64,000 bases of DNA from Enterococcus phage AllMyExes (PV544171.1), one strand, 5' to 3'. Positions 1 to 39,191 are shown, counted from the stretch's first letter. Numbers and translations are program-made. Notes: a model not told the origin generated them from the sequence alone.

Positions 1-3000
1 GTACTTGATGATGATGGCAAACCAGATTTGCACGATTTGCTAATTCATATTAACCCAGATGGTACTTATAGAACTTCTATGATGAACAAAGAAGAGGATT
101 GGCGTACACTATTTGAAATGACACCAGATGGCAGAGTTAAATTAAGAAAACAAGACTCTATTAATATTGATGGTGGCATAGAAATAAGTGAGCTAGGAAT
201 CAACAATGAGGGGTTCGTTTATTTACGTAATGGGGATATGGATTTAGAAGTACGAAAAGATGGTATCTATTCACAAGGGAAACTGTTTACAGCCGATGTA
301 GACCTATCCGATGTATATGACAAACTAAATGGGTTGTCTATACAGATTAAGGAAACAAATGGTCAATTAGAGATTATAGCTAATGGTGTAGAAGAACAAA
401 ATGGAAAAATATCAGAACTTTCTACAGAAATAACAATTGTAGCAGGTAAAGTTGAATCAAAAGTAACAAAGACAGAAGTTCAGGATATGATTGACAGTTC
501 TTTTGTAGATATGTCTGATGCGATTAAAAAAGCACAAGAAGATGCTGACAAAGCAAATAAAGTGATTGCAGATATGTCTAGTGATAACAGGTTGACTCCA
601 AGTGAAAAAATAGATTTATTAAAAGAATGGGATATTATAAAAAATGAATATCCAAGCTATCTTGAACAAGCAGAGACCTACGAGGTTGACAGTAAAGACT
701 ACACTGCTAAGTACAATTCATTAGAGCTATTTGTTACCCCTATATTGGCTGACATGGAATCAACTAGCTCAGTAGACGGAGCAACACTTCGCAAAACGTT
801 TAATTCTTACTATACAGCAAGAATAGCTTTACTAAATTCTATTAGTAAAAAACTAAAAGACGGTATCACAGAGGCTATGAAAAAAGCATCCCAAGCATCA
901 CTAGATGCAACACAAGCAATGGCAGATGCCTCACAAGCTAAGATTGATGCAGATAATGCTAACAAACTTATATCTGATATAGCAAGTGATAATAAGCTGA
1001 CACCTTCTGAAAAATACCAACTTAAAAAGGAATGGGATGTAATTGTTAAGGAATACCCTACAACAATTGCACAAGCAGAGAAGTACGCAGTAGACACAGC
1101 AGAGTATACAGCTAAATATAAAGCCCTAGAGCTGTTTGTAGAGCCTTTGTTTAAAGACATGGATGAAACTAGTATAGTAGATGGAGAACGCCTTAGAGCG
1201 ACATTCTCGGACTATTACGCAAGTAAGATTGCGTTACTAAAAGAAGTAACGGATTCAGCTAAAACAGAGCTAGATGCCTATGGTAATAAAATATCTGTAA
1301 TGGAAACAAACATTACTCAAACGTCAGAAGCTATTACTTTACTAGCTACTAGAGTACAAACTGTAGAAGACGGTGTACAATCAAATAAGGCACAAATCGA
1401 AATACAAGCTGAACAAATTAGTCAAAAAGTAACTGCTAGTGAGGTTAAAGGAATTGTAGACGATTCTATTAACAATCTAACATTAGGTGGAACTAACTTA
1501 TTTGTTATAAAGACACAGACAGCAGGTTTACTAAACGAGAATGATGGAACTGTAGGTACTGCAGTAGACAACTCAGTAGTGTCAGACTACATTAAAGTTA
1601 ATCAAAAAACACCATATATTGCTACACTTTATGGTAACACTGGCACAAACATGATTATAACAGACTGGTACGATAAAAATAGAACATTTATTTCTGGGGA
1701 AGCTGTGGCAGACTCTGGGGATTTTAGTAAAAAGTATGTATCACCCGAGAACGCAGTTTATGCTAGAGTAAGTTATAAGAAAGCAAACTCTGTGAATATC
1801 AAATTCGAGGCAGGTACAAAGGCTACTGATTACAGCCCTTCATGGGAAGACATAAAAGGTGACCAAACTGCTTTAGAGGAATACATTAAAAAAGTAGAAG
1901 AACAAGCCAAGAAAGCTCAACAAGATGCTGAAAATGCTAAAAATGATGCTGAAAATGCAAATAACGCAATAGCTGATATGTCGAATGACAATATGTTAGC
2001 ACCGAATGAGAAAAAACAAATACTCTTACAATGGGAACAGATTAAAACAGAGTATCCAATAAACTTAGACCAAGCAACTAAATTTGGAGTGTCTTCTCAA
2101 CAGTATACAACAGCATATAACGCACTAGACGAGTACTTAAAACCGATACTAGCTGATATGACAACAACTTCTGTAGTAGTTGGTTCTACTTTAAGAAATA
2201 CGTTTAACAATTACTATGACAAAAGAACTACTTTGCTAAACAGAATATCTGACGTAGCAAAAAATGTAGCAGATAAGGCGCAAGAAACTGCAGATACTAT
2301 CAATGATAATTTACAAAATATTGGTGGGTACAACTATGTAGGGTTCTCTTCCGGAGACAATATGTTGCCTAGACTAATGATTAAAAACGTTGGTTACTAC
2401 ACATTAGGTTCGTCAACCACAGAGTTCATTGACAGCATGGTAGCTGTAAAAGGTGATGCAACGACCCAACCTTTCGATTATACTGTAGGTACTTCTGATA
2501 AAGAAATTGCTGGTGGCGGTTTAGCTGATTACCGTATGAAAGAAGTAAAAGAAGGTCAGTGGCTAACAGCTTCTGCAAATGTGCAGGTAATAGGTGGTGG
2601 CTCCGCTAGATTAGCTATCTACACTTTAGAAGGGGATAACTGGGTAGGCTCTAATAGTACACCTATACAAGTAAGTGATGGTTTGAAACGTGTTGTGGCT
2701 CAAAGAAAAGTAACAGGCTTAACAAAAGGTGTGCTAATACGTATTGAGTCAGCAGACACTAATGTTAAAGAGTTTCGATTTGGTAATGTTCAACTAGAAG
2801 TTGGTATTATCCCAACTCCTTGGAAAAAGTCTGATATAGATATTCAAGAGGACATAAACAATGTTGTTCAGAATATAAAAACATACACTGCTTGGGCTAA
2901 CGATTTACAGGGTCTTGATTTTACAAGAGAAAAGGTTGAAGGAAAAACTTACATGTATGTAGGTACCTCTATGAAAGATAGTGATAACTATTCAGATTAT

Positions 3001-4806
3001 ACATGGAGGCTAACTGATGAACATATAGAAGGTCAGATTAATGGTAAGGAAGGCGCATGGATTTATTCTCCAACAGCCCCTACTAATCCATCGCAAGGGC
3101 TTATATGGGTAGACTTGTCAAAAGTACCTAACCAACCTAAGCGTTGGGTAGATTCAGAAACTGGGTGGGTTGCATTAACACCAGAAGAGGTTAAAGATTT
3201 ACCTTGGGGTGAAGATGGCACAAACTTAGCTGACTGGGTAGCACAGGCAGAGCAGAGAATATCTTCCGATAGCATTATAAATACTGTACTAGGTTCTGAG
3301 GATTTTACTAGTGTGTTTGATACAAAGGCTAACACTACTGACCTAGATAACTTAGCTACCTATGAAGATTTAGACTCAATAAAAGAGGACTATAACCGAC
3401 TAATCAAAGAAGGCATAAACGGTATTGATTTTACCCCTTATGTAACTAACTCCGAACTACAACAGCTTAAAGACAGCTTTAACTTCTCTGTTCAACAAGC
3501 CGGAGGAGTTAACATGCTTAAAAACTCTTTAGGATTCTCTGGGTTAGACTTCTGGGATGGTACAGTAGGGAAGAACTTATTACCTAACTCTACTTGGAAT
3601 TTAGGTTTCGGTAGATGGGGTGGCGCTTCAATCGCTAGTTTTGAAATATTACCACCAGAAGACGACAAGCCTACAAGTCATATACTGGGTTCAATAGGTT
3701 CTCGTTCTTCTACTAAAGAAATAGGTAATAGACCCCACCCATTAAAAGTTAACTCTGGTGAAACGTATACAATAAGCTTTGATTATAAAGAAGAGGCATT
3801 GGCTTATGATAAGGACAGACCTATCCTTGTTGTTAGAAACTACCCTGATAAGGACACAGACCAATGGATGGAGTACTCAATAGAAGGTTGGGCAGTAATG
3901 GCTAACGGAAGCACTACTGACTTAACTGTTTGGAGACGTTTTACAAAAACATTTACAATAGGTACTAGTGGCTACTTAGATATTTTACCTAAAACTATAG
4001 TAGAGTCATGGACACACAGGTCTTTTTGGAGAGAGCTAAAAATAGAGGAAGGGTCACAAGCTACTACTTGGGTACCTAACAAGGAAGACGGGGCGTTTAC
4101 CGGTGGTATTGTTGAAACTACCCAAACAGAAGAACTAGCTAACCTCGGGTTCGGTTCGGGATTTGTTAGTTCTAAAAGACCTAGCTCTTCATTAACACAG
4201 TCTGTAGAACTACCTGAAATAGGTGCTAACCTTGAGTATTCACTATCTTTTTATATGAAGGTAACTACAGACAATCCTGTAGCCGACTTTAAATGTGGTA
4301 TTCGGGTTTATGAGGGGGATACTCTAACTTATACATTAGGCATAGAAGATGCAACACAGCCAATACCACTAGGGTTCCAACAATACAAGCTTGTGTTCAC
4401 TCCCACAAGTACCTCTACTAAAATAGAAATGTTTGTAGAGAATGGACAAGAGGCATCTGTTATTATATCAGGTATTATGTATAATATCGGGAATATACCT
4501 CTTAAATGGCAACCATATCCAAGTGAGATATACAATACGAATGTTAAGATTGATATTAATGGGGTAACTGTTAAAAACAATCAAACAGATGGGTACACAA
4601 TGATTACCCCCCAAGAGTTCTCAGGGTATTCTCGTATTGATGGTAACATAGAACGTATTTTCACTTTAAATGGGCAGGTAACAGAAGTTAAAATGCTAAA
4701 GGCTGAAAAACGTATAACTATGGAACCAGTATCTGTGTTTGCTATGAATACAGTAACAGATACAAAAAGAATTAGAGGTTGGGCATTTGTACCATCATTT
4801 GAATAA
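1..4806 (+). CDS. Giant tail/baseplate-associated structural protein (5'-partial). Three internal coiled-coil repeats of about 115 aa plus CBM-like beta domains.
   Basis: The reading frame is open from nt 1, so the gene starts upstream of the window. Three repeats of the unit (DADKANKVIADMS.DN.LTPSEK...EW..I..EYP...AE.Y.V....YTAKY..LE) lie at about nt 520-853, 889-1228 and 1879-2233. The C-terminal half is beta-rich, with modules ending in (K/E)IE.G..aT.W.P. Position is immediately upstream of the baseplate genes. Confidence 0.6.
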   Translation, partial: VLDDDGKPDLHDLLIHINPDGTYRTSMMNKEEDWRTLFEMTPDGRVKLRKQDSINIDGGIEISELGINNEGFVYLRNGDMDLEVRKDGIYSQGKLFTADVDLSDVYDKLNGLSIQIKETNGQLEIIANGVEEQNGKISELSTEITIVAGKVESKVTKTEVQDMIDSSFVDMSDAIKKAQEDADKANKVIADMSSDNRLTPSEKIDLLKEWDIIKNEYPSYLEQAETYEVDSKDYTAKYNSLELFVTPILADMESTSSVDGATLRKTFNSYYTARIALLNSISKKLKDGITEAMKKASQASLDATQAMADASQAKIDADNANKLISDIASDNKLTPSEKYQLKKEWDVIVKEYPTTIAQAEKYAVDTAEYTAKYKALELFVEPLFKDMDETSIVDGERLRATFSDYYASKIALLKEVTDSAKTELDAYGNKISVMETNITQTSEAITLLATRVQTVEDGVQSNKAQIEIQAEQISQKVTASEVKGIVDDSINNLTLGGTNLFVIKTQTAGLLNENDGTVGTAVDNSVVSDYIKVNQKTPYIATLYGNTGTNMIITDWYDKNRTFISGEAVADSGDFSKKYVSPENAVYARVSYKKANSVNIKFEAGTKATDYSPSWEDIKGDQTALEEYIKKVEEQAKKAQQDAENAKNDAENANNAIADMSNDNMLAPNEKKQILLQWEQIKTEYPINLDQATKFGVSSQQYTTAYNALDEYLKPILADMTTTSVVVGSTLRNTFNNYYDKRTTLLNRISDVAKNVADKAQETADTINDNLQNIGGYNYVGFSSGDNMLPRLMIKNVGYYTLGSSTTEFIDSMVAVKGDATTQPFDYTVGTSDKEIAGGGLADYRMKEVKEGQWLTASANVQVIGGGSARLAIYTLEGDNWVGSNSTPIQVSDGLKRVVAQRKVTGLTKGVLIRIESADTNVKEFRFGNVQLEVGIIPTPWKKSDIDIQEDINNVVQNIKTYTAWANDLQGLDFTREKVEGKTYMYVGTSMKDSDNYSDYTWRLTDEHIEGQINGKEGAWIYSPTAPTNPSQGLIWVDLSKVPNQPKRWVDSETGWVALTPEEVKDLPWGEDGTNLADWVAQAEQRISSDSIINTVLGSEDFTSVFDTKANTTDLDNLATYEDLDSIKEDYNRLIKEGINGIDFTPYVTNSELQQLKDSFNFSVQQAGGVNMLKNSLGFSGLDFWDGTVGKNLLPNSTWNLGFGRWGGASIASFEILPPEDDKPTSHILGSIGSRSSTKEIGNRPHPLKVNSGETYTISFDYKEEALAYDKDRPILVVRNYPDKDTDQWMEYSIEGWAVMANGSTTDLTVWRRFTKTFTIGTSGYLDILPKTIVESWTHRSFWRELKIEEGSQATTWVPNKEDGAFTGGIVETTQTEELANLGFGSGFVSSKRPSSSLTQSVELPEIGANLEYSLSFYMKVTTDNPVADFKCGIRVYEGDTLTYTLGIEDATQPIPLGFQQYKLVFTPTSTSTKIEMFVENGQEASVIISGIMYNIGNIPLKWQPYPSEIYNTNVKIDINGVTVKNNQTDGYTMITPQEFSGYSRIDGNIERIFTLNGQVTEVKMLKAEKRITMEPVSVFAMNTVTDTKRIRGWAFVPSFE

Positions 4807-4905: not shown

Positions 4906-7317
4906 ATGGCTTTAAACGGAACAAAGTATACAGCCTTTGCCCGACATAGATTAGTTTTAGAGTGGCGCGCAAATCAAAACATTGCAGGGAACTACTCAAC
5001 AATCAGCGTATGGCTATACCTACAATCTATGGATAAATGGGGTAGACTTGATGCTCCCGCTATCGGTGATGCCAAAGTTACCGTAGAAGGAACTACACAG
5101 ACAGAAAAAGCTTCCTCTATGTTAAATGCTTTCCAAAAGAAACTATTACTAGCTAAAGAGTGGAGAGTTAACCATAATAATGACGGTTCTAAAAGAATAA
5201 CTATTGGAGGTAGCTACTTTGTAAACGTTACTTTTACTGATAACGGTGTACCAACATATTATGGTACGATAACTATACCTAATTTTTCAGTAGACCTAAA
5301 TAGAATACCTAGAAGAAGTTCATTAAACCCTGTCCCTACATTAAATTTACCGGGGAACTTACCAATAACAATAAATAGGCAGAGCTCCACATTCAAACAT
5401 AATCTAACTGCTTGGGTGGCTAACAGAGATAACCCCACATTAAACAATGATGACCATTGGACGTACTTGACAAACCTTAATGATGTAGGCACTAGTGGAG
5501 CGTTTAGTTTTACAGTAGCAAATAACAAAACTATTTTTACTGCATTAAACAAAAGAACTAGTTGGCAAGGCAAGGTTAAACTCTGGACTATAGGGTTAGA
5601 TGATGTAGTTAGTCAGGAAAGAACATACAAGATTGTCCCCCCAATGAATGCACAAGCATCGGGAGGTAAGATAACCTTAAATGTGGGAGAGAAAATCAAT
5701 GTATCACTAAGTAACTATCGGTCTGATGCAAACTTTACTTATGATGGGGTATTTAACATTAGTGGGCTCAACATACCTATTGCTACAAATTCAGCAGGGA
5801 ACACAATGTCGTATACACTAACTCAAACAGATGTAGACAATATATTGAAGAAAATACCAAATGCGGATTCCTCGTGGGGTCAAGTAACTGTAACAAGTAA
5901 GTATAGTGGAGTACAATACAGGACTCCATGGACAGGACAGAGAATAGATATAACTATACCTAAAAACAAGTATGTACCAAGCATTAATGGTACCCCTACT
6001 TATGAAGATACAAGTAATGTCTCTGTCGGGCTTACAGGTAACAATCAGGTAGCCCTTCAAGGTAAGTCTAATATCAAAGTGATTATCCCTGCTAACTTTG
6101 CAACGGCTAATGGTTACTCTACTTTGAAAACAATTGATGTGTCTTTAGGTGGTACATCAAAAACAATCAACTATTCAAATGCAGAAACAGTTGTAGAACT
6201 AGGAGCACCTGCTAACCATACATCAGATACATTAATAGTCACAGTAACTGACAGTCGTGGGTTTAAGTCTAACTGGACAAAACATGTAGACATTTATCCC
6301 TATGAAAATCCAAATATGGACTTTACAGTCGCACGTAGAAATAACTTTGAGACAACGACAGATATTAATGTTAATAGTACATGGTCTCCTATCACTATAG
6401 GTGGTGTAAACAAAAATGCTATCCAATCAGTAACCTACGCAACAAAAGTAGCAGGTGTTGGTACTTATGGAGCAGAAACTGCTTTAAATTTTACAGCTAA
6501 TGGTAGTATGGTAACAGTAAAAAATACACCAATAGAATTAGATAATACCAATACATACGAAGTTAGGTTGAGTGTAACTGATAAGTTTAGTACGTTTACT
6601 AGAACAGCTACTGTTAAACCGGGTAACCCTATCATGTTTATTGATGCCGATAATCGAAGTCTGTTTTTAGGTAATGCCTTTGTTGACAATAACAATAATG
6701 AGCTAAGAGGCTTATTAGAGATAGAAAGAGATAAGTGGCAGGAGAATGGTTTAGTAGGAATATCCTTAAACAACAGTGATATATCAGCAGTCAATGGCAT
6801 ATGGTTCTCGACAGATACATCAAATAACGGAGGTGAAGGAGTTCACTTTATTAAATCAGGTAAACCAAGAAACTCCTTAAAGTGGGAGGACTATGACTAC
6901 GTTTATATGAGGGACAATGGATTCTATGTTAACAATGACTCTAATCCTATATTTGAAGTTTCTGACACTGGTACGATGACGTTTCCTACTAAACAGCTTT
7001 GGAAAGGGGCTGCCTATTTAAATGAGAAACAAGAAGTTTTACCTAGCAAAAAATTAACAGAGTGCCGAAACGGATGGGTTTTGACCTTCTCCGCATATGA
7101 GTCAGGTGCAGGGCAACCTTGGGATATAACTCAGGTATTTATTCACAAGTCTGTACTAGACCAGTTTAACACAAGAGGGTTTAGGGCTATAATAGGTCAT
7201 GGAACTACGATAACATTTAAATATATGTATATAACTGACGGTCGTATTGGTGGTAATGTTAATAATGGGACAGGAGTTAACAATGGCATTGTTATAAGGG
7301 AGGTATCAGAATGGTAG
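4906..7317 (+). CDS. tail fibre / receptor-binding-like structural protein (803 aa, N/T/G-rich, Ig-like beta repeats)
   Basis: Long ORF that follows a hairpin terminator and a 5'UTR. Composition and repeated beta-strand motifs are typical of fibre proteins. No enzymatic motifs seen. Confidence 0.45.
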   Translation: MALNGTKYTAFARHRLVLEWRANQNIAGNYSTISVWLYLQSMDKWGRLDAPAIGDAKVTVEGTTQTEKASSMLNAFQKKLLLAKEWRVNHNNDGSKRITIGGSYFVNVTFTDNGVPTYYGTITIPNFSVDLNRIPRRSSLNPVPTLNLPGNLPITINRQSSTFKHNLTAWVANRDNPTLNNDDHWTYLTNLNDVGTSGAFSFTVANNKTIFTALNKRTSWQGKVKLWTIGLDDVVSQERTYKIVPPMNAQASGGKITLNVGEKINVSLSNYRSDANFTYDGVFNISGLNIPIATNSAGNTMSYTLTQTDVDNILKKIPNADSSWGQVTVTSKYSGVQYRTPWTGQRIDITIPKNKYVPSINGTPTYEDTSNVSVGLTGNNQVALQGKSNIKVIIPANFATANGYSTLKTIDVSLGGTSKTINYSNAETVVELGAPANHTSDTLIVTVTDSRGFKSNWTKHVDIYPYENPNMDFTVARRNNFETTTDINVNSTWSPITIGGVNKNAIQSVTYATKVAGVGTYGAETALNFTANGSMVTVKNTPIELDNTNTYEVRLSVTDKFSTFTRTATVKPGNPIMFIDADNRSLFLGNAFVDNNNNELRGLLEIERDKWQENGLVGISLNNSDISAVNGIWFSTDTSNNGGEGVHFIKSGKPRNSLKWEDYDYVYMRDNGFYVNNDSNPIFEVSDTGTMTFPTKQLWKGAAYLNEKQEVLPSKKLTECRNGWVLTFSAYESGAGQPWDITQVFIHKSVLDQFNTRGFRAIIGHGTTITFKYMYITDGRIGGNVNNGTGVNNGIVIREVSEW

Positions 7318-33690: not shown

Positions 33691-36066
33691 TTGAAAATTC
33701 TATTCTTACAAGAGTATATTAGAGAAAATCATGTCCATAATGGAAAGAACGGACAAACAGTTGATTTTAAAAGAACAGAAATGGGTAAAAAACTCACGGG
33801 TCTGTTAAATACAATAGGGCTGACAGGTAGGGACTATGCTGTAGACTATGTGTACGACATGATTCCGGAAGTACAGAAAGTTAACCCTAGAACAGGTAAA
33901 CCAATTAAGTATAAGACACCTACGTTAAGACAGCGTAAAGAACCAGAGGAACGGTTACTCAGACGTTTAATGAAATACAAACCAGATATTATCATCCCAA
34001 TGGGGGAGATGGGTTGTAAAAATTTATTAGGAAGTACTTCTATCACAAAGAATAGAGGAGTACCAACTAAGAAAACAATTACGAATGAGAACATACTGAG
34101 AACGGCTGATGAGCAAGGACTTGAGGTAGACGAAGTAGTAGACTCTTTTGAAACTTGGGTACTACCTATGTTTAGTATGGAATACTGGACAGCTAACCCA
34201 AACATTGAGAACTTTATCATGGCGGATATTGATACATTGGGTAAGTTTGTTCAAGAAGGGGAACAAGCATTTATACCTAAAAAAGTAGATTACGAATTTG
34301 TTGATAACATTGAACGTGTAAGACAAATTTTCGGTTTTTTAGACAAAACGAAGCCAGTAACTGCATGGGACTTGGAGACAAATAGTTTACGTGGTGACTT
34401 ATTAGGAGCTAAGCCTCTTGTAATGTCTATGAGTTGGCTAGAGGGGCAAGGTGTGACTATACCGTTAGAACACCATGAAGCTAAATGGAGCCCAGAAGAA
34501 CTTAACGAAATATATGACTTATTTGAGAAGTTTTTAGCGGACAGACAGCAACCAAAAGTAGGACAAAATATCCAGTTCGATATTAGATTCTTAATGAACA
34601 CAAAAGGATTTACAGAGTTTGAAGACAACAGAGATACAAAAATTGCTTACTATCTAATTGTTTCTCAGAAAGTAGACACTTCAAAACGACTATCCGATAT
34701 TGCATATGAATTAACAGATATGGGAGGCTATGACGAACCGTTAGAGCAGTATAAAAAACAGTATAAAGAGGACTATATTGCTCGTAAGAAAGCAGAGATT
34801 GATGCTTTCAAAGAAGCTGAAAAAGAACGAGTAGAGGGTGAGTTCAAGATAGCAATGGATAGATATAAGCAAGAAGTTAAAGAAGCTAAGCTTATTGGTA
34901 AACCTACTAAGTCCATTATTAAACCAGTAAAAGAAAAAGTTGTAGTACCTAAGAAATCGGATATTAAACTTATTAATGAGATTGACGGTGGTAACTTTAA
35001 CTACGACTGGATTCCATTAGAAATTATGCACCCATATGCTAGTGGAGATGTCGATTGCTGTCTACGTATCTATAATGTTCTATATAAACGAATTGAGGAA
35101 CATCCTAAGATGTTGGGATTATGGTTGGGCTTTTATCCTAGACTAACAGCAACATTAGCACACATCGAGGCTTCTGGTGTTCTATTAGACTCTGAATACG
35201 CAGAATTAGTAGAGAACATCTATACAGAAGAAGAACATCGGTTGCTTAATGAAATTAGAAAGTTACCAGAAGTAAAAGAAGTAGAAGATGAACATATGAT
35301 GTTCTACAAAGAGGGGCTTAAAGAAATGACAAAGCCTGTCAAAGATAGAGATGCCTCTGTTGCCAGACTACGAGATAAATATAAAATTACTGATAGTGAG
35401 AACAAAGTACATTTTAAACCAAGTTCGTCTGAACATAAGGGTAGACTGCTATTTAAAGTAATGGGACTTACACTACCTTATGATAAAGAATCTATTAAAA
35501 AAGAAACTTTTGACAATGGGGTACCAGAACATCAGCTAACATGGAGAGATTATAAAACAGATAAACATGCACTAGCTTATATTGCAGAAAATTATCCAGA
35601 GGCTAAACATGTTGCTGAACTTTTGCTAGAGTATTCTAAAGTAAACACACTAAAAAATAACTTTGCTCAAAAGTTACCTAAATTAGCATCTAACAAAGAT
35701 GGCATGATTCATGGTTCATATAACAGTACAGGTACAGAATCTACACGATTGAGTGCAAACAACCCGAATATGCAACAATTAAGTAGTAAGGTTGGAGACC
35801 CTAGACGTTTTGACTATAAATATCCAATTAAACGTTTATTTAGAACAAGATTTGAGGGAGGCGGAATGCTACAACTAGACTACTCCGCCCTAGAAATGCG
35901 TATTTTAGGTTTGATTGCAAAAGATAAAGCAATGACACAAGCATTTATTAATGGTGAAGATATGCATGAGGCAACTGCATCTCTTGTATGGAAGTTACCT
36001 AAAGATAATGTACCAAAAGATATGCGACAACGTGCGAAGAGTGTCAACTTCGGCATCGCTTACGGT
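33691..36066 (+). CDS. family-A DNA polymerase, exon 1 (3'-5' exo plus polymerase through motif B)
   Basis: Motif A LQLDYSALEMRIL, motif B RQRAKSVNFGIAYG. The 5' splice site is placed after the U at 36066 (tacggU), which pairs with the intron segment GCCGU at 36077-36081 to form P1. Confidence 0.7.
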
Positions 36067-36505
36067 AAACACAATTGCCGTCTTGTAGCGTAAGCTACTC
36101 GATTAAACTTACCTAAACGGGCATAGCTGAATAATCAATAAGCTGATAAGAGAACCTAAGTCCTGAAAAGGATAGAGGCAATCCCGTGCTAAGTTGCTAT
36201 AGTAAAAGAAGAGTGTAGGTAGCTAGAATACTTACAGGGTAGTGACGTATGTGGTGTACTGGTAAGCACTGCATATCTGAACCTTTATAGGGTTATGTGT
36301 GAACTCCTCAAACCAGTAAAGAAAACACACTATAGCATAAATGCCGAACGACTATCGAAAAGTGAGTAGCTGTCGAGAGGACACCTACAATATAACTGAG
36401 TAGAGTACACCAACAGGTGGAAATGGTAAGGCTCCTAGAGTAACGACTAGGAGCGTGATATAGTCTAAGCCCCTAATAAATATCGGGAAACCGAGGGTAT
36501 AACTG
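36067..36505. other. group I self-splicing intron (IA2/T4-td-like core), 439 nt, no ORF
   Basis: It interrupts polA between motifs B and C. P1 is ACGGU with GCCGU. It ends in G (36505). Core-like stretches ACCTAAACGGG, CAATCCCGTGCTAAGTTG and AAATGCCGAACGACTATC resemble, as I recall them, conserved td-intron elements. No ORF of 60 aa or more lies inside. Confidence 0.65.
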
Positions 36506-37201
36506 GAAAGTCCTTTTTCAATTGCACCTAAGTTAGGTGTAACTGTAGAAGAAGCAGAGCGTATTTTTGAAGAGTACTTTGCAAGTAAGCCAAGTATTAA
36601 ACAATTTATTGAAGAGACACATCAATTTGCTCAACGTTATGGCTACGTAGAAACACTACAAGGACATCGTAGACTATTGCGTGACTCATTCTCTAAAGAT
36701 AAGAAAGTATTTAATGGCGCAATGCGTAAATCAGTAAATACAATCATTCAAGGAACTGGTGCCTACTTAACTAACCTATCAATGGTATACATTGACGAGT
36801 ATATCAGAAAACACAATAAGCGTTCACGTATTGTTATCACTGTACATGACTCACTTGTTATTGATTGCCCACGTGATGAAGTGGACGAGATGGCAAAAGT
36901 GGCTAAATATATTATGGAGAACTTGCCAATTGATTTCTTAATGATTGAGTGGGAAGGTAAAGAGATGCGTTACCCTATTGTGGCAGATGTAGAGATTGGG
37001 GAGAATTACAATGATATGGTTGATTATGATGCAGAAATTATCAACGAGTTTGCTTCTTACCGAGGATACGTAAAATACTTCAAAGACCAAGCTAAGATTA
37101 AAGATTACTATGATAACAAACTTATCTCAGAAGAGCAAAAAGACCAAGGTATCAAAGTTATCCAAGATGCAATAGAGTCATATAAACAAATGACAATTTA
37201 A
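36506..37201 (+). CDS. family-A DNA polymerase, exon 2 (motif C, C-terminus)
   Basis: After splicing the junction reads YG|ESPFSIAPKLGVTVEEA, the same 17-aa spacing to EEA as E. coli and Taq (YGMSAF..). Motif C VHDSLVIDCPRDE. An in-frame stop at 36500-36502 rules out any splice site further upstream. Confidence 0.65.
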   Translation, partial: ESPFSIAPKLGVTVEEAERIFEEYFASKPSIKQFIEETHQFAQRYGYVETLQGHRRLLRDSFSKDKKVFNGAMRKSVNTIIQGTGAYLTNLSMVYIDEYIRKHNKRSRIVITVHDSLVIDCPRDEVDEMAKVAKYIMENLPIDFLMIEWEGKEMRYPIVADVEIGENYNDMVDYDAEIINEFASYRGYVKYFKDQAKIKDYYDNKLISEEQKDQGIKVIQDAIESYKQMTI

Positions 37202-37222
37202 TAAAAAAATGTTAAAAATAGC

Positions 37223-37254
37223 TTGACTATTGACGTATAGTATGTTATTATAAT
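37223..37254 (+). promoter_or_regulatory. possible promoter (TTGACT / TATAAT, non-optimal spacing)
   Basis: The TTGACTATTGACG and TATAAT hexamers are present, but the spacer is 20 nt or 13 nt. Confidence 0.3.
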
Positions 37255-37303
37255 ATGGCAGACAAGTTTTCTGTATTAATACAAGAAGGGGGAGTTAGAG
37301 AGT

Positions 37304-37901: not shown

Positions 37902-39191
37902 ATGAATTTTCAAGAACAATTACAACAACAATTAAAACAACAAAATATTGGAGAACGTGAAGCGGTAGACTACCCATCAAATCATTTAAAACATAAAGAA
38001 TTATACTTCCCTAAAGCAGAAAATGGTCAACCATCAACTCTATATGTACGTGTGTTACCTCCTGCAGTACCGGGAGAAAACTATAATGTTAGCGCTCGTG
38101 AGGCATTCTTAACAACTCGTAATCGTAATGGTAAAGATTTAAAGAGCAACTTTATCTTTTCAGAACACCCTAATGCAGAAGACATCTTAGAACAAGCTAT
38201 GATTCGTTGGAACGCAGAAAATCGTGTACCAAACCCTTATAGCCGTAATACAAAACCTCGTCAACGTTACTACGTTAACGTAGTGCAGTTAATTATTAAC
38301 CAACAAACAGGAGAAGTTAGCTACGAAACAGATTCTAATGGTCAGCTAATGGTTCGTTTACTTAAGTTACCACAAACAGCTTGCATGGCTATTAATGAGA
38401 GCTTAAGTAACCCAATGTTACGTCCACAGTTTTCACCTGATGTACCAGAAGAAGTAGCACAATACAGCTTCATCTCTTCTGCAGATGCGTTCCCTATTTC
38501 AATTACAAAACCACCACGTAGTAACAAACCTACTTCGTACAATGTACAAGTGATTAGTAATCGTAGCTTAGGTGCATTACCACAAGGTTGGGAAAACTTA
38601 TTAGAAGACTTGAAATACCAAGCTACACCTTCTGTAGAGTATAATCGTGAGTTTATTGAGTACTTTATTGATGTAGTAGACGGGAAAGAACCTGTGCATC
38701 AAGGAGCTCAAAGTCAAGGAACCCAAGCTCCACAATTTAATCAGCAACCAGTACAGCCTCAATTTAATCAACAGCCTGTACAACCACAATTTAACCAACA
38801 ACCTGTACAACCAATGCAACAAAATACTGGTTGGTCGCCACAGCAAAGCCAACCACAACAACCTGCTACAGGTTTTAACGCAACGAACATGGGGACACCT
38901 CCAAACATTAATGGAGGGTTTAACCAACAACCTGTACAACAACCTGTACAACAGCAACAACCGATGGGTTCTTTCAATGAACAACCAGTGACAGACCCTT
39001 CCACCATTTCTGATGCGGATATGCCTTTCAATATGCAGTCCATGCCTGATGTATCACCACAACAAAATGCTGTACCTGAGCAACCTGTGACTAATACACC
39101 AGAGCCAGTCAGCCAACCAGTTGTTAACCAACAGCCAAATAACACACCTAGTGTAGACGACCTATTAGCAGGTATGGTAGGCAACGTTTAA
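37902..39191 (+). CDS. hypothetical protein with Q/P-rich repeat linker (QFNQQPVQP x3) and C-terminal acidic/hydrophobic tip; SSB-like architecture, unproven
   Basis: Folded N-terminal region of about 290 aa, then a low-complexity Q/P/G region, ending DDLLAGMVGNV. Position after polA and before RecA. Confidence 0.35.
   Translation: MNFQEQLQQQLKQQNIGEREAVDYPSNHLKHKELYFPKAENGQPSTLYVRVLPPAVPGENYNVSAREAFLTTRNRNGKDLKSNFIFSEHPNAEDILEQAMIRWNAENRVPNPYSRNTKPRQRYYVNVVQLIINQQTGEVSYETDSNGQLMVRLLKLPQTACMAINESLSNPMLRPQFSPDVPEEVAQYSFISSADAFPISITKPPRSNKPTSYNVQVISNRSLGALPQGWENLLEDLKYQATPSVEYNREFIEYFIDVVDGKEPVHQGAQSQGTQAPQFNQQPVQPQFNQQPVQPQFNQQPVQPMQQNTGWSPQQSQPQQPATGFNATNMGTPPNINGGFNQQPVQQPVQQQQPMGSFNEQPVTDPSTISDADMPFNMQSMPDVSPQQNAVPEQPVTNTPEPVSQPVVNQQPNNTPSVDDLLAGMVGNV
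38733..38813 (+). repeat. 3 x 27-nt in-frame tandem repeat encoding QFNQQPVQP; codons differ between copies
   Basis: cag caa cca gta cag cct / caa cag cct gta caa cca / caa caa cct gta caa cca. Confidence 0.6.

Follow-up and report, generated by a model that had tools for sequence, protein, structure and literature searches.

A drum RNA in the P6a loop of a group I intron that interrupts the DNA polymerase gene of Enterococcus phage AllMyExes

Introduction

The family-A DNA polymerase gene (polA) of Enterococcus phage AllMyExes (PV544171.1) is broken between two of its conserved motifs, and the locus raises the question of how a whole polymerase could be made from it and what the interrupting sequence carries. 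We analysed a stretch of 64,000 nucleotides (nt) of this genome, called the window below, in which positions 36067-36505 separate the two parts of the gene. An earlier note, made from the sequence alone, had read the interruption as a group I intron lacking an open reading frame (ORF). Group I introns splice in two steps, initiated by guanosine, that restore the mRNA and free the intron. Their presence in polymerase genes of the Herelleviridae is textbook material, and the intron of the window is one of the IA2 introns known from phage polA genes (SPO1, Bastillevirinae, Twortvirinae), a familiar kind, so that the intron alone would be routine. What is new is a structured non-coding RNA, drum (Rfam RF02958), in the slot usually held by a homing endonuclease gene, together with a link between drum and the genes for PBECR4 or AbiD that this finding exposed. 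No description of a structured RNA in the endonuclease slot of an intron was found in the searchable literature.

Weinberg et al. 2017 (PMC5737381) described drum as a free-standing RNA with a Rho-independent terminator and an unnamed nearby partner protein, likely to have a 'sophisticated biochemical function'. No later functional paper on drum was found in the searchable literature. PBECR4 (PF18813) is a predicted BECR-fold endoribonuclease (PMC5512222).

Results

Exons and splice junction

The polymerase ORF (33691..36093) continues for eight codons (KHNCRLVA) beyond motif B, NFGIAYG, and then stops, as the earlier note had said. Also in agreement with it, the gene resumes in another frame, open from 36503 after an in-frame TAA at 36500-36502, which reads LESPFSIAPKLGVTVEEA...HDSLVIDCPRDE and includes motif C; the frames of the two exons differ because 439 = 3 x 146 + 1. 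Exon 1 covers 33691..36066 (792 codons, ending in ...NFGIAYG with U as its last base) and is defined by the ORF list, the ungapped match to Enterococcus phage Ef2.3 and Pfam; exon 2 covers 36506..37201, begins with ESPFSIAPKLGVTVEEA, contains motif C (HDSLVIDCPRDE) and runs to the stop, as supported by the Ef2.3 match and Pfam DNA_pol_A. These and all other features given below lie on the plus strand.

The polA gene of Ef2.3 has no intron. When 35500-36066 was joined to 36506-37300 (1362 nt), the product aligned to the Ef2.3 gene without a gap, with 1351/1362 identities, and the match was lost when the boundaries were moved by 1 nt to either side. The limits of the intron are 36067-36505, 439 nt, fixed by this intron-less allele, and the junction that had been predicted to the nucleotide, 36066|36506, is exact. 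In Listeria LP-124 and Bacillus Goe8, whose polymerases are uninterrupted, a 121-residue peptide that crosses the junction aligns colinearly as a single block of 363 nt; it also matches across the junction in one piece in Staphylococcus K-like phages (residues 1-118, 354 nt) and in Twort (residues 1-120, 360 nt). The spliced product is a family-A polymerase of 1023 amino acids (aa) matched by both Pfam DNA_pol_A_exo1 and DNA_pol_A. The profile comparison that the earlier note had proposed for this product gave a single DNA_pol_A match, residues 611-961, which runs over the junction residue 792|793; the break sits between motifs B and C, inside this one domain match. Over 35500-37300 the window shares 99.9% identity with Enterococcus phage MDA2 (Herelleviridae, Brockvirinae, Kochikohdavirus), and dozens of related Enterococcus phages match this region.

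Group I identity and fold of the intron

BLASTN relatives of the intron core were found in 468 phage records, where they sit in genes for terminase, recombinase and polymerase in phages of Staphylococcus, Listeria, Bacillus and Brochothrix. One of them lies inside a Twort orf142 intron, which itself scores 100.9 bits with the Rfam group I model RF00028 (Intron_gpI). A nhmmer profile built from 14 other phage introns matches 36106-36200 (1e-22) and 36328-36506 (1e-33), flanking an insert, and a profile from three Twort introns alone reaches 4e-8 on the window. RF00028 itself, the check that the earlier note had put forward, gave no match on the window, even at E<=10 on 35900-36700. In a control, the same model scored three introns of the Twort orf142 region at 63.6-100.9 bits and the cargo-free homologue of phage SIOphi at only 20.1 bits (E 0.35). 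Because of this low score, the negative result carries no weight. The Twort and SIOphi scores led us to discard it as evidence against the intron: RF00028 lacks sensitivity both for this sub-lineage and for the 127-nt insert.

The fold was drawn by hand on the window (P1, P2, P3, P4, an extra hairpin, P5/P5a, P6/P6a, P7, P7.1, P7.2, P8 and P9) with Twort I2 and I3 as guide. A first guess for P3, ACUUAC/GUGAGU, was replaced by CUUACC/GGUAAG after comparison with these two introns, and the final fold was then tested by counting its 75 pairs on an unbiased MAFFT alignment of 15 introns (alignment A1). Paired cells amount to 86.9%, against 34-42% when the partners were slid by 1-3 columns, and changes on both sides occur in 47 of the 75 pairs, against 17-25 with slid partners. 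For covariation the score is 0.347, compared with 0.115 or less, and none of 500 shuffles reached the observed values. The best-supported helices are P3 (5/6 pairs) and P8 (8/8 pairs), while P7 is invariant.

In P1 (36062..36081) the last five nucleotides of exon 1, ACGGU (36062-66), pair with the internal guide GCCGU (36077-81), and a U36066.G36077 wobble marks the 5' splice site, which bears out the pairing given in the earlier note. P2 (36085..36098) is the hairpin GUAGC-GUAA-GCUAC, with double changes in 4/5 pairs and 94% of cells paired. The 5' strand of P3, CUUACC (36108..36113), pairs with GGUAAG (36425-36430) and forms a pseudoknot with P7; double changes are seen in 5/6 pairs and 92.9% of cells are paired. 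The segment 36117..36187 holds P4 (ACGGG 36117-21/CCCGU 36183-87), the extra hairpin (36125-36144) and P5/P5a (36155-36178, with a GAAA loop), helices that are 79-93% paired with double changes in each. P6 and P6a span 36188..36344: P6, GC 36188-89/GC 36343-44, is 100% paired with double changes, and P6a, UGCUAUAG at 36195-36202 with CUAUAGCA at 36330-36337, is a perfect 8-bp stem closing a terminal loop.

The guanosine-binding helix P7 pairs GACUAU (36350..36355) with AUAGUC (36460-36465); AACGACUA and GAUAUAGUCU (P7) are invariant in all 15 introns, Twort orf142 I1-I3 included. P7.1 (36366-36388, inner stem 36371-83) and P7.2 (36408-36419), the extra helices of IA type, fill 36366..36419 with the covarying stems GUAG/CUAC, GCUC/GAGU, GUUC/GAAU and GUAU/AUAC. 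P8 (36431..36454) reads GCUCCUAG-AGUAACGA-CUAGGAGC, with double changes in 8/8 pairs and 96% of cells paired. P9 and the 3' tail (36470..36505) consist of CCC 36470-72/GGG 36495-97, an inner stem UCGG-GAAA-CCGA and the tail UAUAACU, and end in G36505, the terminal guanosine that had been predicted and whose position is set by the Ef2.3 allele.

The element has the U.G wobble at its 5' splice site, the guanosine at its 3' end and a conserved P3-P9 core, P3/P7 pseudoknot included, that is backed by covariation. P7.1 and P7.2 covary between P7 and the 3' strand of P3, and this pair of helices, along with the homology to the Twort and T4 td introns, places the intron in the IA2-type phage lineage. 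On these comparative grounds 36067-36505 is established as a group I intron, predicted to splice, that belongs to the phage IA2 lineage (Twort orf142/T4 td type) and interrupts the essential polA gene, and the group I call of the earlier note stands on its homology, nhmmer and fold. No ORF longer than 32 aa is found in the intron, and hence no homing endonuclease ORF as in mobile introns; the largest one lies on the minus strand, in line with the earlier statement that none reaches 60 aa.

Compared with Twort orf142 introns I1-I3, the window intron has the same core and the same helix order (P2, P3, P4, P6/P6a, P7.1, P7.2, P8), with 80% BLAST identity over 73 nt. It differs in host gene, in the extra hairpin between P4 and P5, in a short P9 without the 3' extensions of Twort, and in a 127-nt cargo where the Twort introns have a 4- to 5-nt loop. 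Twort I2 is an IA2 ribozyme for which a crystal structure exists. The T4 td intron, which differs in host gene and phage family, shares CUAAACGGG, CAAUCCCGUGCUAA, AUAAAUGCCNAACGACUAUC and AUAUAGUCU with the window, and AACGACUA is also common to it; the three core strings that the earlier note had pointed out are found there almost verbatim as CUAAACGGG, CAAUCCCGUGCUAAAUUG and AUAAAUGCCUAACGACUAUC. In T4 td the cargo of the same P6a loop is the gene of I-TevI, a GIY-YIG homing endonuclease, whereas in the window it is a non-coding RNA.

A drum RNA in the P6a loop

The insert in the terminal loop of P6a (36203..36329, 127 nt) is unique among the 15 aligned introns and is flanked by the nhmmer matches. 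P6a ends in a loop of 4 to 7 nt in Twort I1/I2, AG20 and A9 (e.g. GCAA, GUAA, AGUAA), and holds an ORF in Listeria cka8. In the window, Rfam finds drum RNA (RF02958) at 36237..36333, with 46.5 bits against a gathering threshold of 43 and E=1.5e-5 for the 64-kb window. The match is full-length (model positions 1-112) and of a short subtype without the 15-nt inner hairpin. A further match, to RAGATH-9 at E=3.6, was discarded as noise. Besides its score, the window copy has the P1/P2 helices of the family, which covary, and a nearly identical conserved 3' domain, ...AGGGUUNUGUGUGNACNCCUCAAACCAG...AAAACAC. In 11 drum units drawn from five contexts, pairing reaches 88.6% in P1 and 91.4% in P2, and both sides have changed in 3/4 and 9/12 pairs, respectively.

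Directly before drum lies a 23-nt hairpin (36214..36236), UGUAGGUA-GCUAGAA-UACUUACA, which is outside the Rfam model. Each of the clades examined has a hairpin immediately before its drum, namely Listeria phage LMSP-25, Enterococcus plasmids and prophage-like contigs of the IMG/VR collection, and the stems are GUAGAUA/UAUCUAC in E. faecium and E. hirae plasmids, ACAAAUG/CAUUUGU in the Listeria phage and GAUAGC/GCUAUC at the IMG/VR loci. We read the hairpin sequence by sequence, as MAFFT set it out of register between clades; the 58% pairing that it shows in the 11-unit alignment is an understatement for this reason. The P6a loop thus carries a complete drum unit, 5' hairpin plus drum, without a terminator. 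'ORF-less', the earlier description of the intron, is right as far as ORFs go, but the intron is not empty, and the drum RNA had passed unnoticed.

Insert-related sequence at this intron position was found only in nine Enterococcus phage records and one metagenome contig. Ten of the 12 intron differences between the window and ECP3/CUB-FS fall within the insert. The ECP3 differences include six in the stems predicted for the 5' hairpin, drum P1 and drum P2, and these leave the pairing intact except at the terminal pair of the hairpin. The drum unit is also present in phage LG1, where it scores 47.5 bits, and in a divergent phage from a metagenome, with 45.8 bits. The latter, whose polymerase has clearly diverged, has the same intron with drum and, next to helix 3, a double change from U-A to C-G; the hairpin stem of its intron copy has exactly the sequence found in the E. 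faecium and E. hirae plasmids.

Described drum RNAs are free-standing, with a terminator and a partner gene, whereas the window copy is nested in a ribozyme. No Rho-independent terminator was found in 35900-36700, an absence that would be required if drum sits inside an essential mRNA, and PBECR4 was found neither in the window nor in any of 50,697 phage records (tblastn). The window drum is not a free-standing gene with its own promoter and terminator; a -10-like TGCTATAGT is the only remnant, at the position of the promoter -10 element in the free-standing copies. The segment 36195-36219, the 5' strand of P6a plus linker, TGCTATAGT-aaaaga-AGAGTGTAGG, aligns with the extended -10 (TGnTATAAT) and transcript start of free-standing drum genes, for example TGCTATAAT-atttat-AGAGGATAGC, but at the -35 position only 3/6 bases match. 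This region may be a vestige of a captured promoter or a live internal promoter. The GenBank records of MDA2 (3733-4248 of the examined sequence) and CUB-FS (420-1059) list several 'hypothetical proteins' of 30-50 aa in the intron, on both strands, which are almost certainly spurious calls over structured RNA.

Drum precedes PBECR4 or AbiD on Enterococcus plasmids

Among 72,556 plasmids, all 19 PBECR4 matches are in Enterococcus, and in all 19 of these plasmids drum and PBECR4 are adjacent and co-oriented, with drum about 55 nt upstream. A BLASTN search of plasmids with the window insert pointed to the same genus, with 30/30 matches in Enterococcus and the best ones in E. faecalis. Outside phages, the nearest relatives of the window drum are found on these Enterococcus plasmids. 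In the three plasmids examined with Rfam, drum scores 50-52 bits and is of the same short subtype as the window copy, with a nearly identical 3' domain. The free-standing plasmid loci are laid out as promoter, RNA, terminator, ribosome-binding site and effector. In E. faecalis pKUB3006-2 the PBECR4 gene, whose ribosome-binding site directly adjoins the terminator, is followed by AbiH. In E. hirae pDY27-poxtA (about 1957-3558 of the examined sequence) drum is followed by about 470 nt without PBECR4 and then by AbiD (PADLOC, 240 bits), whose start is preceded by the same TTTTTTTTTAGGAGAAA junction as PBECR4 in pKUB3006-2. This shared junction suggests that the effectors behind drum are interchangeable. 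Drum is thus linked to PBECR4 or AbiD on plasmids of the genus that this phage infects.

The pair also occurs beyond plasmids. A loose drum pattern gave mostly chance matches on IMG/VR; a tightened one left 19 loci, with drum in 13 of the 18 scanned. These 13 copies score 93-102 bits and have a sigma-70 promoter, the 5' hairpin and a terminator, and 8 of the 10 examined are followed within about 50 nt by a PBECR4 gene of 204-219 aa. In a protein-first search, drum lay exactly 53 nt upstream of PBECR4 in 3/3 loci, one of them chromosomal and two in a defence island. When the E. faecalis PBECR4 was used as a second protein query, the matches were confined to its own cluster. Exact matches to the drum core of the window subtype were absent from IMG/VR, and BLAST of gut-type drum against phages gave one record. 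A combined drum and P7 pattern found one true copy in metagenomes, nothing in IMG/VR and only chance matches in genomes.

Three further settings were noted. On metagenome contigs the drum-PBECR4 pair stands in a defence island beside QatB/TatD genes, a MmeI-type restriction-modification enzyme and a resolvase, and on IMG/VR prophage-like contigs it lies between the terminase large subunit and portal genes. Listeria phage LMSP-25 has a free-standing drum (50.2 bits; 2978-3076 of the examined sequence) inside its tRNA array, and 2.4 kb from it a ROOL-like RNA (5465-6016) with 88.5 bits, under the gathering threshold of 99.1.

An allelic series at the polA locus

Related phages differ in what they carry at this site. 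Ef2.3 has polA without the intron. In EFLK1 and many others the window's intron occupies the identical site, with identical 5' and 3' parts and another P6 cassette, which encloses a gene for a 220-aa I-HmuI-like HNH protein (PF22083). The drum cassette is found in the window, MDA2, ECP3, CUB-FS and others (9 records). In LG1 the drum-bearing intron is inserted 12 nt upstream (NFG|IAYG), a site shared by Bacillus SIOphi and Listeria cka8. Intron 3 of the SIOphi polymerase gene is 79% identical to the window intron and lies in the same motif B-C segment without cargo, and cka8 and LG1 belong to the same intron lineage. In LG1 and cka8 the internal guide GCCGA pairs with exon UCGGU, where in the window GCCGU pairs with ACGGU, a compensatory change.

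Four of the 11 mismatches between the window and Ef2.3 are synonymous third-position changes that cluster within the final 13 nt of exon 1, which ends in GGC ATC GCT TAC GGT in the window and in GGT ATT GCA TAT GGT in Ef2.3. One of them abolishes the CGGU site upstream, and another makes P1 stronger at the site in use; they reflect either co-conversion or adaptation. LG1 keeps the exon sequence of the intron-less type, yet has its intron 12 nt upstream with the guide changed from GCCGU to GCCGA. The P4-P5 hairpin of LG1 is about 35 nt longer and matches the version in Brochothrix phage A9. This expansion, together with the two alternative P6 cassettes, shows modular recombination among introns of this family. 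In A9 (1040-2830 of the examined sequence) the large terminase gene is split by four tandem Twort-type group I introns, across which the GenBank record annotates many small ORFs.

Downstream of polA, the ORF of a single-strand DNA-binding protein (37902-39191) has a C-terminal Q/P-rich tandem repeat (QPQFNQQPV, three copies; 38700-39000), ordinary low-complexity sequence. In sum, everything that the earlier note had said of the sequence can be found in it.

Discussion

Taken as a whole, we think it highly probable that the window holds an IA2 intron in polA with a drum RNA as cargo, which would be released and act in trans. Exogenous guanosine would attack after U36066 in P1, and the freed 3'-OH of exon 1 would then attack after G36505, joining ...IAYG to ESPF... 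and restoring the 1023-aa polymerase. Drum would be transcribed within the polA pre-mRNA, possibly also from the vestigial internal -10 element, and released inside the excised intron. As to its role, we tentatively propose that it is an orphan copy of the RNA partner of the host drum-PBECR4/AbiD modules: a lytic phage would have copied the RNA half of such a plasmid module and parked it in the P6a loop, and early transcription of the polymerase gene, followed by splicing, might release a decoy or antitoxin mimic that disarms the host module and blunts a response of the abortive-infection type. This is a possibility that we favour among the roles considered, at a confidence that is well short of conviction. 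Type III toxin-antitoxin systems (ToxIN), with the phage-encoded escape RNA pseudo-ToxI, provide an analogy. Like them, drum-PBECR4 loci consist of promoter, structured RNA, terminator and endoribonuclease gene, and the lytic phage carries the RNA half alone; unlike them, drum is a single structured unit and no tandem repeat array, and its toxin-antitoxin role is suggested by layout.

Several points weigh against this account. Splicing of 36067-36505 itself is predicted, and RF00028 is silent on the window. For SIOphi, only spliced pol transcripts were seen in vivo, but a fragment of its polymerase gene failed to self-splice in vitro (PMC11878797), and a host or phage cofactor may therefore be needed. 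The drum score is just 3.5 bits over its threshold, and the phage copy lacks the inner hairpin of the 100-bit drums as well as a terminator. No PBECR4 or drum matching that of the Listeria phage was found among the plasmids, and PADLOC has no model for PBECR4. The toxicity of PBECR4 is a prediction (PMC5512222), the link of drum with PBECR4 and AbiD is drawn from gene layout, and the decoy function is what we infer from architecture and host matching only.

The main rival to a decoy is that the intron is real and its insert inert, a decaying captured fragment or a selfish hitch-hiker in a permissive loop, with no benefit to the phage. P6a loops do accept any cargo, from loops of 4 to 7 nt up to ORFs of about 0.7 kb, and the near-threshold score, the greater variability of the insert relative to the intron core (10 of the 12 ECP3 differences) and the failure to find the partner protein in the window or the phage records would all fit. 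Decay, however, sits badly with a drum unit that is intact over the full length of the model and still has its 5' hairpin, with ECP3 stem changes that keep pairing but for one terminal pair, with the U-A to C-G double change, and with a unit that is kept at two insertion sites, in nine records that come from several countries, and in a phage whose polymerase has clearly diverged. We consider inert cargo rather unlikely. If the drum unit acts, it might do so in cis, as a sensor on which folding of the P4-P6 domain, and hence splicing of the polymerase, would depend, an allosteric ribozyme for which the tandem of c-di-GMP-II riboswitch and group I intron in Clostridioides difficile is a precedent. 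Such a sensor would agree with drum being grafted straight onto P6a, with the leader-like position of free-standing copies, which have a terminator before an effector gene, and with the 'sophisticated' RNA conservation pattern of drum (Weinberg et al. 2017, PMC5737381). Yet the perfect 8-bp stem of P6a insulates drum from the core, sister alleles are predicted to splice the same core with an ORF or, in SIOphi, without any cargo, and the free-standing drum in the tRNA array of a Listeria phage points to a trans-acting or self-contained unit. Gating in cis appears improbable to us.

There might also be no splicing at all, with the polymerase made as two polypeptides from a split gene or the gene being a pseudogene; GenBank lists two 'DNA polymerase I' coding sequences, and the Rfam group I model finds no match. 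But at the conserved junction exon 2 has neither a start codon nor a ribosome-binding context, one Pfam domain match extends over the break, which separates motif B from motif C, the group I fold is supported by covariation and homologous to introns with proven splicing, and an otherwise 99% identical phage, Ef2.3, has the gene uninterrupted. A split, unspliced polymerase is effectively excluded.

For the intron family, the allelic series (no intron, HNH cargo, drum cargo, and an insertion 12 nt upstream with a changed guide) amounts to a natural experiment in intron mobility and in the co-adaptation of exon and guide. For drum, a motif that was an orphan gains a concrete context: it is the RNA that lies upstream of PBECR4 and AbiD genes, on plasmids of Enterococcus as well as in defence islands and prophages, and phages that infect this genus have just the RNA. 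If our proposal is true, a new family of RNase-based defence modules would have drum as its RNA partner, and the homing-endonuclease slot would have been repurposed for an anti-defence RNA. A decoy of this kind would represent an RNA-based anti-defence strategy and a new use for the cargo loops of introns, and it would matter for the choice of therapeutic Enterococcus phages.

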